8,586 bases of DNA from a virus. Taxonomy: Monodnaviria > Loebvirae > Hofneiviricota > Faserviricetes > Tubulavirales > Inoviridae. The stretch lies in the IMG/VR virus record IMGVR_UViG_2690316267_000001, one strand, 5' to 3'. Positions 1 to 8,586 of the stretch are shown here, in pieces. The translations under genes and the position numbers were made by a program. Every line of letters begins with the position of its first letter. The stretch's first letter is position 1. The notes beneath the pieces were generated by a model, which made no database searches, was not told where the DNA came from, and worked only from the letters and a program-made list of their open reading frames with translations.

Positions 1-104
1 CCCCGTCAGTAGCTGAACAGGAGGGACAGCTGATAGAAACAGAAGCCACTGGAGCACCTCAAAAACACCATCATACACTAAATCAGTAAGTTGGCAGCAT
101 CACC
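1..104 (-). mobile_element. IS1: IS1 terminal segment (insA-proximal end, includes the first ~16 codons of insA at 49..1); joins 7923..8586 across the window ends to make one full IS1
   Basis: Bases 1-104 are the reverse complement of the IS1 left end; 93-104 (GGCAGCATCACC) is the reverse complement of the IS1 terminal repeat GGTGATGCTGCC. 104 + 664 nt = 768, the canonical IS1 length. Concatenating window end to window start gives GCCGTTACGCACCA|CCCCGTCAGTAGCTG, which is continuous insA coding sequence (..DGVVRNG..). Confidence 0.9.
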
Positions 105-476
105 GGATGGCAGAATCTGGCGGGAATCGTTGACACTTGGCGTCAACTGGCTACTATCGACAGTGATTCAAAATCATCCGTTTCTCCAGACGAATCAGAA
201 TCAAATGTCTGTCAGCAGTAAGTGAACGGCCTGACCTCACCAATCAGGCCTGTTCATCCAGTTGCAGTTGGTAAATCTGTACCTGATACATGAAACCTTC
301 CCCAGAAATACAGCCACAATGTCAGATAAGATGAACGCTGCCGCGCCGAATCAGCTATAACGCTCAAAATGAAAACTGTACGGCTTGGCCAACCCCGGAC
401 AGCAACAAAACGAGTTTTGTCACTGACCGGAGTTTACGATAACTTCGTAAGCATTAAATTTTAGCGGCTAAAAAGT

Positions 477-725
477 TCACCACCACCATGCAAACGGCTT
501 GTTACTGACAGGAAATGCGATACCGTCAGCATCACGACCACGCAAGACCTGATTAAGAAGCTTTCTGACTTCACGGCGCTCTGGCCGGGTCATCATCATA
601 TTGCGATACCAGGACGGTGATTTATCAAACCACCTGGAACAACTGGTAAAATGTGAACTAACACGACGGTAAGACTTCATGCGACCACTGGGGAGTCGAT
701 CGCGCACCCTGCTTTTTACAGACAT
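477..725 (-). CDS. hypothetical small basic protein (82 aa, Arg/Trp-rich), function unknown; could be spurious
   Basis: ORF with ATG at 725-723 preceded by GAGG (735-732) and a 6-nt T-run spacer; start region sits inside a 21-bp palindrome. No recognisable family; lies where Ff phages have non-coding intergenic DNA. Confidence 0.3.
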   Translation of the reverse strand: MSVKSRVRDRLPSGRMKSYRRVSSHFTSCSRWFDKSPSWYRNMMMTRPERREVRKLLNQVLRGRDADGIAFPVSNKPFAWWW

Positions 726-734
726 AAAAAACCT

Positions 735-755
735 CTAAGTAATTGAATTACCTAG
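735..755. promoter_or_regulatory. 21-bp near-perfect palindrome CTAAGTAATTGAATTACCTAG (9 of 10 arm positions pair), candidate operator or hairpin tip
   Basis: Direct inspection; centred on G745; overlaps the Shine-Dalgarno of ORF 477..725; flanked by further imperfect pairing (AGACAT 722-727 with ATGTCT 759-764). Confidence 0.4.
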
Positions 756-832
756 AAGATGTCTTTCTGTTCATATCCTGTCAGTTTTAAGGCCATATAG
801 AGGCTCCGTGGTGAAACGTAAAATCCGGCTCT

Positions 833-878
833 TGATGTGGCCATACCGGGGCTTAACGCACCCGCCACGGCCCCATCA
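833..878 (-). other. imperfect stem-loop overlapping the gIV stop codon; possible terminator or packaging-signal-type hairpin
   Basis: Arms 833-842 (TGATGTGGCC) and 869-878 (GGCCCCATCA) pair at 9 of 10 positions; GC-rich 26-nt interior with further short pairing; moderately U-rich sequence downstream on the minus strand (GGAUUUUACGUUU). Confidence 0.3.
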
Positions 879-2141
879 AAGCGCGCGAATAATATGAGCG
901 GTCAGCAGAACATACATAATGCGTTGCTCATTACTGTCAGCTTTACTCCTGAAAAGCCAGCCAATCACCGGAATTTTACTGATAAACGGTACAGAACGGT
1001 CAGCATTGCTGGATGATGAATCAATCAGCCCACCAAGTAAGAGCGTCTGGCCATCCTTAATCTGAACTGTTGTCTGTATCTGACGCTGGTTCGTAATAAT
1101 ATCAGATGCCTGGTCATCGTTGCTGATGGAATCAGCGCGGGTATCAATAGTAAGTACAAGCTGGCCGTTCCCCATAACAACAGGCGTCACCTTCAGAGAT
1201 ACGCCAACATCATGACGTTCAATGGTCTGAAACGGATTATTTACCCCGGCAGATTCACCCGTAACTTTACCCGTGATAAAGGGTACATTTTTACCAACAG
1301 AAATATAGCCTGTCTGACCAGACTGGGTAAGAATCCGGGGCGTTGAAATCACCTTAGACCGGGAGTTACTCTGCACCGCACGCAGGGATACGGCCAGAAC
1401 ATTACCATCAAAAATGCCAAAAGAGCCGCCGGCAGTCGACAATGCGCTACCCAATGCTGAAGTATTAAAGCCCCCTGCTACTTTATGCCCGGATGCAGAA
1501 CCGGCTGCAAACGACAAATCAACACCATCCGACAGACTGGTTTCAAACATCAGCGACTGAATCAAAACCTGATCGCGGGCAACATCCACTGAATTGATGA
1601 AATCGGAAAGGACGGGAAGCAGCTCATCAGGTGCGGAAACAATCAGGGAGTTATTGCCAGGATAATCCACAACATTACCCCCGCCATTAGAATCCAGATA
1701 AATTTTAACCAGTTGCTGAACATCAGACGATCGAACTTTTGTCAGCTTAAAATTTCTGACAGTAAACTCCACTGGCGCTGGCTGATAAGATGGCTCAGAC
1801 GGGAAAGAGTCATAAGACCGAATATCAGCATCATCAAGGTCTGACGCCATCTGTGATGGTAATTTTGACGGCAAAGAGACTACTGCAGGATTACCCGAAA
1901 GCATGACAAATCCGTTAGCATTCAGTACAGATTTGAAGAAACTATCAATATTTGTGGGATTAACATCAGCATTAAATACCGTTACGGTTCCTTTAACATC
2001 AGGATTAACAATAACGGGCTTGCCAGTTTTTGATGAATACCACTGGACAAATGAGCGAACGGATGAATTATTCAGGTTAACAGTTTCAGCAGAAACGCAA
2101 AAAGAATAAGTGAATAAGATAGCAATGAAAAATAAACGCAT
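876..2141 (-). CDS. gIV: gene IV secretin pIV (outer-membrane export channel), 421 aa
   Basis: Translation closely parallels M13 pIV as I recall it (e.g. ..RILTQSGQTGYISVGKNVPFITGKVTGESAGVNNPFQTIER.. and C-terminal ..YVLLTAHIIRAL). Start taken at ATG 2141 (MRLFFIAILFTYSFCVSA signal peptide, AGGAG about 11 nt upstream) rather than the longer track ORF start at 2234. Confidence 0.9.
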   Translation of the reverse strand: MRLFFIAILFTYSFCVSAETVNLNNSSVRSFVQWYSSKTGKPVIVNPDVKGTVTVFNADVNPTNIDSFFKSVLNANGFVMLSGNPAVVSLPSKLPSQMASDLDDADIRSYDSFPSEPSYQPAPVEFTVRNFKLTKVRSSDVQQLVKIYLDSNGGGNVVDYPGNNSLIVSAPDELLPVLSDFINSVDVARDQVLIQSLMFETSLSDGVDLSFAAGSASGHKVAGGFNTSALGSALSTAGGSFGIFDGNVLAVSLRAVQSNSRSKVISTPRILTQSGQTGYISVGKNVPFITGKVTGESAGVNNPFQTIERHDVGVSLKVTPVVMGNGQLVLTIDTRADSISNDDQASDIITNQRQIQTTVQIKDGQTLLLGGLIDSSSSNADRSVPFISKIPVIGWLFRSKADSNEQRIMYVLLTAHIIRAL

Positions 2142-2148
2142 AATAATA

Positions 2149-7330: not shown

Positions 7331-7358
7331 AAAGCTAGCGGTCTCAGGAATGAGACTA

Positions 7359-7393
7359 ACGTGCAGTATTACCAACACTGCACGTTCTTTATT
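7359..7393 (+). terminator. rho-independent terminator after the HTH regulator gene
   Basis: Perfect 9-bp stem ACGTGCAGT / ACTGCACGT (7359-7367 with 7377-7385), 9-nt loop, followed by TCTTTATT; a second small hairpin GTCTCA-GGAA-TGAGAC at 7341-7356. Confidence 0.6.
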
Positions 7394-7428
7394 GCGCGAA
7401 TTTTGAACAGTGAAAAAGGATCAAAAGG

Positions 7429-7851
7429 ATGAGTAGAAATAACGAAACAAGCGGCGTTGAACTGGTTGTCGTGGGCATATTTGCTTTCTGTCTGGCAGTT
7501 GTTGCCTGGCTAATGAAAACTTTCGATGTTGAATGGCAAACAGCTCTGGAAACTGCGCCTAGCCTGATAGTCTGGCTGCTTGTTGTTGGGGCGGGGATCT
7601 TTTTCGGGATCAAAATGGAAACAGGTCTTGTTCGCTGGGGTGCTCCACTGGCGATTGCCCTTCTGATTCCGGTATTCAAACCAATCCTTAAGGAAGCTGC
7701 CGGAGTACGTGAAACGGGTGGATTGGTTTTCGATGATATGGTTTCGTGGTATGGAACTGGCTGGGGAATGTCGTTGATGTTTTTCGGAATTCTTATCATC
7801 GGATACGGGCTGCTTTATTGGTGGCACAGAAGAAATTCATATCACTGGTAA
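7429..7851 (+). CDS. small integral membrane protein (140 aa, about 4 predicted TM helices), function unknown
   Basis: Four hydrophobic stretches (LVVVGIFAFCLAVVAWL, LIVWLLVVGAGIFFGI, APLAIALLIPVF, MSLMFFGILIIGYGLLYWW) separated by charged loops; AAGGA 7 nt upstream of the ATG. The overlapping minus-strand ORFs are Pro/Ser/Thr-rich, as expected for antisense of a membrane-protein gene. Confidence 0.65.
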   Translation: MSRNNETSGVELVVVGIFAFCLAVVAWLMKTFDVEWQTALETAPSLIVWLLVVGAGIFFGIKMETGLVRWGAPLAIALLIPVFKPILKEAAGVRETGGLVFDDMVSWYGTGWGMSLMFFGILIIGYGLLYWWHRRNSYHW

Positions 7852-7855
7852 TTTC

Positions 7856-7877
7856 AAACCGTGGGAAACCACGGTTT
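7856..7877 (+). terminator. stem-loop after the membrane-protein gene (9-bp stem AAACCGTGG / CCACGGTTT, GAAA loop), weak terminator candidate
   Basis: Direct inspection; begins 5 nt after the stop codon; no strong U-tract beyond the stem. Confidence 0.35.
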
Positions 7878-7937
7878 AATAAGAGGAAACTGAACCCTAT
7901 CAGTTCCACAATGGAAAAATTGGGTAGTGACTCCAAC

Positions 7938-8441
7938 TTACTGATAGTGTTTTATGTTCAGATAATGCCCGATGACCTTGTCATGCAGCTCCACCGATTT
8001 TGAGAACGACAGCGACTTCCGTCCCAGCCTTGCCAGATGTTGTCTCAGATTCAGATTATGTCGCTCAATGCGCTGAGTGTAACGCTTGCTGATAACGTGC
8101 AGCTTTCCCTTCAGGCGTGATTCATACAGCGGCCAGCCATCCGTCATCCATACCACGACCTCAAAGGCCGACAGCAGGCTCAGAAGACGCTCCAGTGTGG
8201 CCAGAGTGCGTTCACCGAAAACGTGCGCCACAACTGTCCTCCGTATCCTGTCATACGCGTAAAACAGCCAGCGCTGACGTGATTTAGCACCGACGTAGCC
8301 CCACTGTTCGTCCATTTCCGCGCAGACGATGACGTCACTGCCCGGCTGTATGCGCGAGGTTACCGACTGCGGCCTGAGTTTTTTAAATGGCGGAAAATCG
8401 TGTTGAGGCCAACGCCCATAATGCGGGCGGTTGCCCGGCAT
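7938..8441 (-). CDS. insB: IS1 InsB (transposase catalytic part; expressed as InsAB' fusion by -1 frameshift)
   Basis: Translation [59 protein letters not shown].. matches IS1 InsB from memory. Confidence 0.9.
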
Positions 8442-8586
8442 CCAACGCCATTCATGGCCATATCAATGATTTTCTGGTGCGTACCGGGTTGAGAAGCGGT
8501 GTAAGTGAACTGCAGTTGCCATGTTTTACGGCAGTGAGAGCAGAGATAGCGCTGATGTCCGGCAGTGCTTTTGCCGTTACGCACCA
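8360..8586 (-). CDS. insA: IS1 InsA (partial at window edge; N-terminus continues at 49..1 if the sequence is circular)
   Basis: Translation ..[73 protein letters not shown] matches IS1 InsA; the track's initial M is an internal GTG (Val). Confidence 0.9.

Follow-up and report, generated by a model that had tools for sequence, protein, structure and literature searches.

The window (the whole 8,586-nt stretch of DNA analyzed here) is probably one repeat period of a structure in which phage DNA lies between IS1 copies (IS1-phage-IS1), apparently in the E. coli chromosome; the period consists of a single IS1 and a phage body of 7,818 bp. The phage, an inovirus that integrates at dif, is a mosaic in which a structural and replication module of the UPphi type is combined with a regulatory and accessory module of the CUS-1 type. 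The copy in the window is a derivative that has lost its attP, and its present structure is an ordinary IS1 rearrangement.

Results

A single IS1 is divided between the window ends

The two edges of the window carry 664 nt (7923-8586) and 104 nt (1-104) of IS1 in one orientation, and joining them yields a single intact element of 768 bp, as the initial annotation had claimed. The joined element has imperfect terminal inverted repeats (IRL, GGTGATGCTGCCAACTTACTGAT; IRR, GGTAGTGACTCCAACTTACTGAT), which, together with its size, fit the IS1 family (about 768 bp, with repeats of about 23 bp). The insA frame (91 aa) reads through the 8586-to-1 junction without interruption, and the A6C frameshift motif (TTTAAAAAAC) is accompanied by an open insB frame, which satisfies the InsAB' transposase layout of the family. 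Precomputed Pfam matches comprised Zn_ribbon_InsA, HTH_Tnp_IS1, and DDE_Tnp_IS1, while the NCBI annotation gives a 232-aa fusion. The joined sequence is identical at 768/768 positions to the full IS1 copies at locus L001 (28071-28838) and locus L004 (6139-6906). The continuity of the element across the window ends cannot be due to chance.

No target-site duplication, which for a simple IS1 insertion measures 8-9 bp, was found around the IS1 of the window, as GAAAAATTG precedes position 7923 and GGATGGCAG follows position 104. The same IS1 in the ancestral-type locus L002 is flanked by an 8-bp duplication, CAATTTTT, one copy of which is retained in the window (Table 1). Loss of such duplications through adjacent deletion or recombination between IS copies has been described (PMC11708052), and their absence here reflects a later event of this kind and is no argument against membership in IS1. 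The new junction at 104/105 lies at a point that, in relatives, is separated by 8 bp (TTACCATT) from the phage dif-like site, and it was not found in 5,426 complete E. coli genomes, IMG/VR, GTDB representatives, or JGI metagenomes.

The only identical public sequence continues into chromosomal genes

Over its full length, the window matches nt 1-8586 of CYBP01000067.1 at 100% identity; this 21,570-bp contig of an E. coli draft assembly (GCA_001285805.1) is the only identical public sequence found. Past position 8586 come the 104 nt that complete this IS1 up to IRL and then, with zero Ns, the chromosomal genes ydcA'-cybB-gapC-aldA-ydcF-hrpA. The right-hand IS1 is full-length in this contig, and window positions 1-104 form the contig start and belong to an upstream IS1 copy, of which they are the inner end. 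If the draft assembly is correct, the phage lies between two IS1 copies in direct orientation, the left one represented by 104 nt only and the right one complete. The ydcA'-IS1 fusion, a 45-aa ORF, occurs in a single contig among about 15 billion proteins, and the two private junctions (ydcA'-IS1 and IRL/105) are physically linked in one contig. The ydcA gene lies about 100 kb from dif.

These data bear unequally on the initial annotation, which had counted exactly one IS1 and deduced a circle. The count was right, whereas the deduction does not follow, since cutting out one repeat period gives the same number: a circle, a tandem array, and a composite all yield one IS1 when cut in this way, so that the window ends do not show circularity. 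The circular reading finds no support in the records searched, and the sole identical one runs into chromosomal genes without a gap. Unrelated chromosomal DNA beyond both IS1 parts, which had been named as evidence against a circle, is seen on one side in CYBP01000067.1, and the alternative then put forward, an IS1-bracketed, Tn9-like arrangement in a larger replicon, agrees with this contig.

Gene content and loss of attP

The 7,818 bp between the IS1 parts hold a complete inovirus gene set, which bears out the original identification of a filamentous-phage genome of this length. Pfam matches covered the pIV secretin (Secretin), pI/Zot (Zot), pVI (DUF5455), pIII (G3P_pilus-bind), pVIII (Phage_coatGP8), pV (Putative_G5P), and pII (Phage_CRI/G2P_X_C), and G7P-2 is annotated in locus L001. 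The core genes II, V, VII, VIII, III, VI, I, and IV are present in the conserved UPphi/Lineavirus-like order (Table 1). Gene III is frameshifted, which leaves a 192-aa N-terminal product (4250-4828) with the pilus-binding domain kept and a separate 157-aa C-terminal ORF (3585-4058); the identical allele was found on 82 contigs. Compared with the SCPM-O-B-12142 prophage, gene VIII has a substitution at 4945 that results in V58A.

Table 1. Features of the 8,586-nt window
Feature	Position	Strand	Description
IS1 nt 1-104	1-104	-	IRL end and first 16 insA codons; 100% identical to the starts of full IS1 copies
New IS1-IRL/phage junction	104-105	.	…GCATCACC / GGATGGCAG…
Strong intergenic hairpin	391-434	-	Downstream of the 82-aa ORF; 21-nt arms; z = -4.8
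82-aa accessory ORF	477-725	-	Conserved in this prophage lineage; WP_071792182.1
Gene IV, secretin	876-2141	-	421 aa as annotated; ORF open to 2234; Pfam
Gene I, Zot-family assembly ATPase	2149-3243	-	364 aa; Pfam
Gene VI (DUF5455)	3244-3585	-	113 aa; Pfam
Gene III, attachment protein, disrupted	3585-4828	-	1-nt deletion at 4369/4370
Gene VIII, major coat protein	4875-5117	-	80 aa; Pfam
Candidate gene IX	5147-5242	-	31 aa; a 31-aa gene is called at the same place in locus L023
Gene VII	5242-5328	-	28 aa; G7P-2
Gene V, ssDNA-binding protein	5331-5648	-	105 aa; Pfam
Gene II, rolling-circle replication initiator	5660-6712	-	350 aa; 57% identical to I2-2 pII
Palindrome between divergent HTH gene and gene II	6782-6838	.	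27-nt arms; promoter-like site at 6802-6774
HTH regulator (Cro/CI, RstR-like)	6884-7330	+	148 aa; Pfam; RstR analogy from PMC4266046
Candidate plus-strand origin	7338-7388	-	52-nt element; hairpin with 13-bp stem
140-aa accessory ORF	7429-7851	+	Same protein in the UTI89 CUS-1-type prophage; WP_000089310.1
Retained copy of the original 8-bp IS1 target duplication	7915-7922	.	AAAAATTG, equal to CAATTTTT on the opposite strand
IS1 nt 105-768	7923-8586	-	IRR end, insB', frameshift site, and C-terminal 74 codons of insA

The 52-nt element is 85% identical to the intergenic region of phage I2-2 (E = 2e-9; hairpin z = -4.6), a likeness that suggests it may function as the plus-strand origin; no convincing match to the Ff nick-site motif was found in the window. 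The hairpin at 391-434 is possibly a minus-strand origin or a packaging element, and the palindrome upstream of gene II would represent an operator/promoter region.

Scans of the window that allowed up to 8 mismatches for a dif-like site and up to 2 for a XerC arm gave no match. The dif-like attP feature of the group, which relatives L001-L003 carry at dif/hipA, is missing from the window copy, and the 1,267 bp absent in comparison with relatives hold two inverted XerC/D-like sites around a GC hairpin (folded attP). Since XerCD/dif is unusable and no full-length pIII is encoded, the element is not an infectious phage. Genes II and V and the candidate origin have been kept, so an excised 8.6-kb circle could probably replicate.

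Affiliation with dif-integrating inoviruses

The initial annotation had labeled the phage as Ff-class, not known to integrate, and unusual in carrying an IS, and none of these statements was upheld for this phage. No Ff phage occurred among the megablast matches, which included only I2-2 (77% over 5%), and in tblastn pII matched only I2-2 (57%) and one metagenomic virus; the Ff class (M13/f1/fd, with 6.4-kb genomes and an F-pilus pIII) was rejected. The phage belongs to the UPphi/CUS-1 group, which integrates at dif, and relatives with IS21-like and ISEcp1 insertions occur in RefSeq genomes. Integration at dif, tandem arrays, and episomes are known as family behavior (PMC4266046 and PMC7307601).

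The gene order gII, gV, gVII, gIX, gVIII, gIII, gVI, gI, gIV is that of UPphi (UPphi901 group; Shapiro and Putonti 2020, PMC7307601), which is related to I2-2/IKe. About 81% of the phage body aligns with the UPphi prophage of ECONIH2, at a nucleotide identity of about 85%, and, like UPphi, relatives of the window phage integrate at dif as tandem repeats. In place of the ECONIH2 type of regulatory and accessory module, the phage has that of the CUS-1/UTI89 type (148-aa HTH, 140-aa, and 369-aa ORFs, the last of which is lost from the window), and the window copy differs from UPphi in having no attP, a frameshifted gIII, and IS1 brackets.

CUS-1 and YpfPhi are dif-integrating inoviruses of E. coli O18:K1:H7 and Yersinia pestis, respectively. 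Like the present phage group, they integrate at dif by means of XerCD and form tandem arrays in which one end carries an intact dif and the copies are separated by an imperfect one; an RstR-like repressor and variable terminal accessory ORFs are further common features, whereas the window has no attP. The 140-aa and 369-aa proteins are identical by WP accession to those of UTI89, and HTH, gII, and gV are close homologs. In contrast, the UTI89 prophage has structural and secretion genes of another type (DUF2523, a 520-aa protein, a 341-aa Zot, and a GspD-type secretin). Membership in CUS-1/YpfPhi by structural module (about 99% between CUS-1 and YpfPhi, 7.1 kb) was rejected, since UTI89 shares only the gII/gV, HTH, 140-aa, and 369-aa region. 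The nearest named cultured phage in the collection is I2-2 (Lineavirus), with 57% identity in pII, 77% in gene I DNA over 421 nt, and the common 52-nt intergenic hairpin element; unlike the window phage, I2-2 (6,744 nt) does not integrate and has neither the accessory/HTH module nor an IS.

Relatives and a proposed order of events

Locus L001 holds a tandem prophage that has no IS1, an intact gIII, and dif and dif-like sites at its ends and between its copies, and it differs from the window by one substitution and one indel. Loci L002 and L003 carry, at hipA/dif, two tandem units consisting of the 369-aa gene, IS1, and phage, which are 100% identical to the window and show the 8-bp duplication. 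The intact prophage unit in close relatives measures 9,078 bp.

From these structures, we infer the following sequence of events. The phage would have integrated at dif beside hipA, often as a tandem pair, in units of 9,078 bp. A host IS1 would then have entered the gap between the 140-aa and 369-aa accessory genes, generating the CAATTTTT duplication, and the 1-nt deletion that truncates pIII would have arisen in the same lineage. In one isolate, the IRL end of IS1 was fused to the opposite extremity of the phage body with loss of 1,267 bp, comprising one duplication copy, the 369-aa gene, and the folded XerCD attP; either an IS1 adjacent deletion (intramolecular transposition) or recombination between two IS1 copies after a second one had inserted could account for this. 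Lastly, the IS1-phage unit is found linked to ydcA by a complete IS1 copy, at a distance of about 100 kb from dif, most simply because an 8,586-bp IS1-phage circle formed an IS1 cointegrate with the chromosome or, equivalently, because an IS1-phage-IS1 composite transposed; the predicted IS1-IRR/'ydcA junction, with an 8-9-bp duplication of the ydcA target, would lie beyond the contig start. The IS1, the gene content, both junctions, the deletion, and the match to the contig are direct observations, whereas the order of events, the circular intermediate, and the ability to replicate are deduced from them.

Discussion

Tn9 is built as IS1-cat-IS1, and IS1 forms cointegrates. The arrangement in CYBP01000067.1 resembles such cointegrates and composites in that a direct IS1 pair flanks a passenger, although here the passenger is a whole, potentially self-replicating phage genome instead of a resistance gene, and the second IS1 is visible for 104 nt. 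As in the IS adjacent deletions described earlier (PMC11708052), the IS1 target duplication was lost and a neighboring segment deleted. Two points stand against the chromosomal IS1-phage-IS1 reading. CYBP01000067.1 was assembled as a draft from short reads, and the lineage has multiple IS1 copies (24 matching places in a related complete genome), so the path from phage through IS1 to ydcA' could have been chosen in scaffolding and need not be a physical linkage. Furthermore, a window end lying one period past the contig start is also a natural outcome of trimming a circular or terminally redundant record.

The initial annotation, whose IS1 arithmetic and IS1 and phage identifications were confirmed, preferred a free circular 8.6-kb replicon, for which no supporting circular record was found. 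According to this reading, the window is an 8,586-bp replicative form or plasmid maintained by pII-driven rolling-circle replication, and the link to ydcA is a mis-join through the IS1 repeat. Its ends join seamlessly into one IS1, it retains gII, gV, and the candidate origin hairpin conserved with I2-2, a phage without attP would have to live as an episome or depend on an IS, and each phage end in CYBP01000067.1 leads into IS1 alone; moreover, related inoviruses are recorded as small circular "plasmid" entries of 6.8-9.6 kb, and YpfPhi persists as an episome (PMC4266046). However, PLSDB, INPHARED, complete RefSeq E. coli genomes, IMG/VR, GTDB representatives, and JGI metagenomes contained no such 8.6-kb record, zero indexed contigs were cut at the window edge, and the gap-free passage of the sole identical record into chromosomal DNA would demand an unrelated private ydcA::IS1 insertion together with a scaffolding error in one isolate. 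We therefore consider a free circle unlikely as the source of the record, while such a circle is plausible, if unproven, as a precursor, an intermediate, or an excision product.

The exact IRL/105 junction would also result if, in a tandem array, a deletion starting at one unit's IS1 extended into the end of the adjoining unit, so that the window might be one unit of a chromosomal array of IS1-phage repeats. Such an array could have originated by IS1 adjacent deletion between tandem copies, by amplification between flanking IS1 copies, or by an inversion joining the array to ydcA; tandem arrays are the rule in this phage group, and direct IS1 repeats favor amplification. A dif-proximal copy would, however, give the end at position 105 two continuations (IS1 and TTACCATT-dif), and a contig break would be expected there, whereas the draft contig runs 104 nt into IS1 with no break at 105, which makes an array improbable. 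That the junction at 104/105 is an assembly or extraction artifact, and the real structure an ordinary dif-integrated unit of the 369-aa gene, IS1, and phage as in GCA_977064715.1, is highly improbable. The junction was indeed found in one assembly only, and outside it the window matches an ordinary IS1-bearing tandem prophage at 100% identity. Yet phage DNA meets an exact IS1 terminus (…CATCACC), behind which IS1 is perfect for 104 nt; such ends are typical of real IS1 copies at de Bruijn contig ends, and a random chimera would not break at the terminal IS1 base.

Taken as one period of a chromosomal IS1-phage-IS1 structure, the window offers a well-documented case of a dif-integrated filamentous prophage that has decayed and been reshuffled by a host IS: IS1 entered it, attP and an accessory gene were lost, pIII was truncated, and the unit apparently moved to a place about 100 kb from dif. 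It also shows that window ends completing one repeat unit are not proof of circularity, since an IS-X-IS composite or a tandem array looks alike. A more far-reaching and rather doubtful idea is that this attP-less, pIII-truncated inovirus persists as a self-replicating IS1 "translocatable unit", an 8.6-kb circle driven by pII that would enter the chromosome at sites like ydcA by IS1 cointegration and leave it by recombination between IS1 copies. If so, a filamentous phage would have exchanged Xer-dependent for transposase-dependent integration in nature. Should the circle exist and replicate, the IS would act as a surrogate integration module for an inovirus, a finding of modest interest to the study of prophage domestication and the biology of mobile elements.

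The window ends form one IS1 in a contig that runs into the chromosome

The right and left edges of the window belong to a single IS1 in one orientation, and the initial annotation had the coordinates and the arithmetic right (664 nt plus 104 nt, giving an intact 768-bp IS1). Joining position 8586 to position 1 produced an element with the IS1 left and right terminal inverted repeats (IRL and IRR), an insA frame of 91 aa that is uninterrupted through the joint, an A6C frameshift motif, and an open insB frame. It was identical at 768 of 768 positions to full-length IS1 copies of two E. 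coli records. The sequences that flank it in the window, GAAAAATTG before 7923 and GGATGGCAG after 104, do not form a target-site duplication.

Through the frameshifted pIII fragment described below, we reached the NCBI contig CYBP01000067.1 (GCA_001285805.1, 21,570 bp), of which the window represents nt 1-8586 with 100% identity. Beyond the window, the contig continues, with no Ns, through the last 104 nt of IS1 into ydcA', cybB, gapC, aldA, ydcF, and hrpA, where ydcA' is truncated at codon 37 and reads through into IS1. Its layout is IS1 (104 nt), phage, IS1 (768 nt), and chromosome, the IS1 copies being co-oriented. Since the window ends exactly where the first 104 nt of the contig recur, it corresponds to one repeat period, and such a one-period cut always contains exactly one IS1, whether it derives from a circle, a tandem array, or an IS1-X-IS1 composite. 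The 104-nt IS1 stub appears to resemble the end of a de Bruijn contig within a repeat.

The junction between IRL and phage position 105 was not found in 5,426 complete E. coli genomes, IMG/VR, GTDB representatives, or JGI metagenomes, and the IRR junction was absent from every complete RefSeq E. coli genome in the collection as well as from IMG/VR, GTDB representatives, and JGI metagenomes. An exact-sequence listing of about 15 billion proteins placed the ydcA'-IS1 fusion ORF in one contig only, while a homologue search with the same ORF recovered a different truncation. A search with the edge InsA fragment returned five contigs, all unrelated, and none of the indexed contigs was a free-standing 8.6-kb sequence ending at the window edges. 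Furthermore, neither a PLSDB plasmid nor a GenBank phage record matched the phage body at high identity.

Gene content and affiliation of the phage

The phage body comprises a complete filamentous-phage gene set (cf. the table). A 1-nt deletion (AAGAATAG changed to AAGATAG) disrupts gene III, and the native pIII sequence stops after about 153 residues; the resulting 192-aa N-terminal product retains the pilus-binding domain, and the C-terminal remainder persists as a separate 157-aa ORF. The frameshifted allele was present on 82 contigs, compared with 38 carrying the exact intact 414-aa protein, and it is therefore a stable lineage marker rather than a sequencing error. One might speculate that the N-terminal fragment, either secreted or anchored, confers superinfection exclusion. 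For gene IV, an open frame of 452 codons is available, but the annotations of relatives begin at an internal start and give 421 aa; a product of full length would share 95 nt with the end of gene I. A palindrome with 27-nt arms separates the HTH regulator gene (Cro/CI, RstR-like) from the divergent gene II; it lies in their promoter region and is probably a repressor operator. A promoter scan yielded no more sites than shuffled controls.

Features of the window
Feature	Position (nt)	Strand	Remark
IS1, left-edge part	1-104		104 nt
IRL-phage junction	104/105
Phage body	105-7922
gII, gV, gVII, candidate gIX, gVIII, gIII, gVI, gI (Zot), gIV (secretin)		minus
Gene III	3585-4828	minus	broken
1-nt deletion in gene III	4369/4370
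Gene IV ORF	876-2234	minus
82-aa ORF	after gIV
V58A in gene VIII	4945		non-synonymous, major coat protein
HTH regulator (divergent) and 140-aa ORF		plus
Palindrome	6782-6838		probable operator
52-nt element	7338-7388	minus	candidate pII plus-strand origin
IRR-phage junction	7922/7923
IS1, right-edge part	7923-8586		664 nt

Membership of the Ff class, as proposed in the initial annotation, was rejected, because the nearest named phage was I2-2, whose pII is 57% identical to that of the window, and no Ff phage was among the matches. In its structural and replication genes, the phage shares about 85% identity with prophages arranged in tandem in E. coli ECONIH2, which belong to the "UPphi viruses" (Shapiro & Putonti 2020, PMC7307601). 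The CUS-1-type prophage of strain UTI89 carries the HTH/140-aa/369-aa module of the window lineage, the 140- and 369-aa proteins having identical WP accessions; comparison with this prophage nevertheless led us to reject strict CUS-1/YpfPhi membership. Through the host XerCD recombinases, phages of the UPphi and CUS-1 groups insert into the chromosomal dif site, where tandem arrays are typical; they can also be maintained as episomes (PMC4266046).

Related prophages with and without IS1

In every long-contig context, the phage was located at hipA/dif. E. coli SCPM-O-B-12142 contains two tandem prophage copies adjoining hipA (unit of 9,078 bp). One end bears a perfect dif, while the hipA end and the boundary between the two copies each have an imperfect dif-like site. 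Apart from the gene III indel, these copies differ from the phage body by a single substitution, pVIII V58A, which is shared by the IS1-bearing lineage described next. They contain no IS1, and its place is occupied by 1,259 bp with the 369-aa gene and a dif-like site. About 7 kb from this IS1-free prophage, an IS1 identical to that of the window (768/768; 28071-28838 of the locus) interrupts an autotransporter gene, so that this IS1 type is resident nearby in the lineage.

In the complete chromosome GCA_977064715.1 (loci L002 and L003), the prophage is a tandem pair with a unit of 9,853 bp. Its sequence matches the window at 100% identity, gene III frameshift included, and the same IS1 separates the 140-aa gene from the 369-aa gene, with an 8-bp duplication, CAATTTTT, on its flanks. 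The same IS1 junction was found in three short-read contigs (L005-L007), in which the phage is attached to dif. Related prophages with other insertion sequences were detected in E. coli A20, where an IS21-like ISEc62 has apparently split the attachment-protein gene, and in E. coli AZ184 (ISEcp1); insertions of this kind are not rare in the group.

Decayed copies are common in this prophage group. At hipA/dif of three other assemblies (L022, L028, and L029), copies of this prophage have been reduced by large internal deletions to the 369-aa and 82-aa genes, some form of the 140-aa gene, and, except in L028, where none is called, a fragment of the secretin gene. In GCA_048606355.1, two distinct inoviruses lie side by side at dif, the UPphi-like phage described here followed by an inovirus with Rep_trans, DUF2523, Zot, and secretin genes.

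A deletion at the IRL side

The IRR-phage junction of the window is the ancestral one. At the other end, IRL abuts phage position 105, and compared with the IS1-bearing ancestor, 1,267 bp are missing, comprising one copy of the target duplication, the 369-aa gene, an inverted XerC/XerD-like pair, and the 8 bp TTACCATT. The corresponding L002 region (14725-14855), absent from the window, contains the inverted XerC/XerD-like sites GGTGCGCATAATGTACGACTCGTTATGT and GGTTCGCACAATGACGTTATGCTAAAG with a GC-rich hairpin, GGCCGCTGCG...CGCAGCGGCC, between them, and by analogy it looks like a folded single-stranded attP of the CTXphi/YpfPhi style. No dif-like site was found in the window. Both the deletion and the absent target duplication would be explained if IS1 had caused an adjacent deletion, or if another IS1 had inserted first and the two copies had then recombined; loss of target-site duplications through adjacent deletion or recombination has been described (PMC11708052).

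Replication potential

Between the HTH and 140-aa genes, and not beside gIV, lies a 52-nt element that forms a hairpin with a 13-bp stem (fold z = -4.6) and shares 85% identity with positions 2666-2716 in the intergenic region of I2-2 (E = 2e-9). Judged from this similarity, it is a plausible candidate for a pII plus-strand origin common to phages with an I2-2-type pII. Just after gIV, the end of I2-2 gene IV and the morphogenetic signal are matched more weakly. A search of the window for Ff-type nick-site motifs gave weak matches only, and the I2-2 intergenic comparison was more informative. Both gII and gV are kept, and a circle of IS1 and phage could plausibly replicate; lacking full-length pIII and attP, the element is not an infectious, dif-integrating phage. 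Genomes of related inoviruses appear among small circular "plasmid" deposits from Salmonella (7,938 bp), E. coli (9,565 bp), and Klebsiella (6,814 bp), indicating that replicative forms of the group are captured in complete assemblies.

Discussion

The presence of two private junctions in one contig is most simply explained by an IS1-plus-phage unit of 8,586 bp that is joined to ydcA by IS1. Such an arrangement could arise if a circle with one IS1 formed a cointegrate at ydcA, or if an IS1-phage-IS1 composite transposed into this gene; either route predicts an IRR-'ydcA junction with an 8-9-bp duplication of ...GTACGGCA. We also considered a single inversion of about 100 kb between the prophage IS1 and ydcA, which would yield ydcA'-IRL and IRR-phage junctions, but rejected it as a single-event model, since it predicts dif, and not IS1, at phage position 105. 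A caveat is that the contig comes from a short-read draft assembly and IS1 occurs in multiple copies; the path from phage through IS1 to ydcA may reflect a scaffolding decision, and the source could then be either a free circle or a tandem array. The circular replicon favored by the initial annotation is partly supported and plausible as an intermediate, but the available evidence favors its alternative, an IS1-bracketed arrangement in a larger replicon. We regard the window as a new instance of already known processes.
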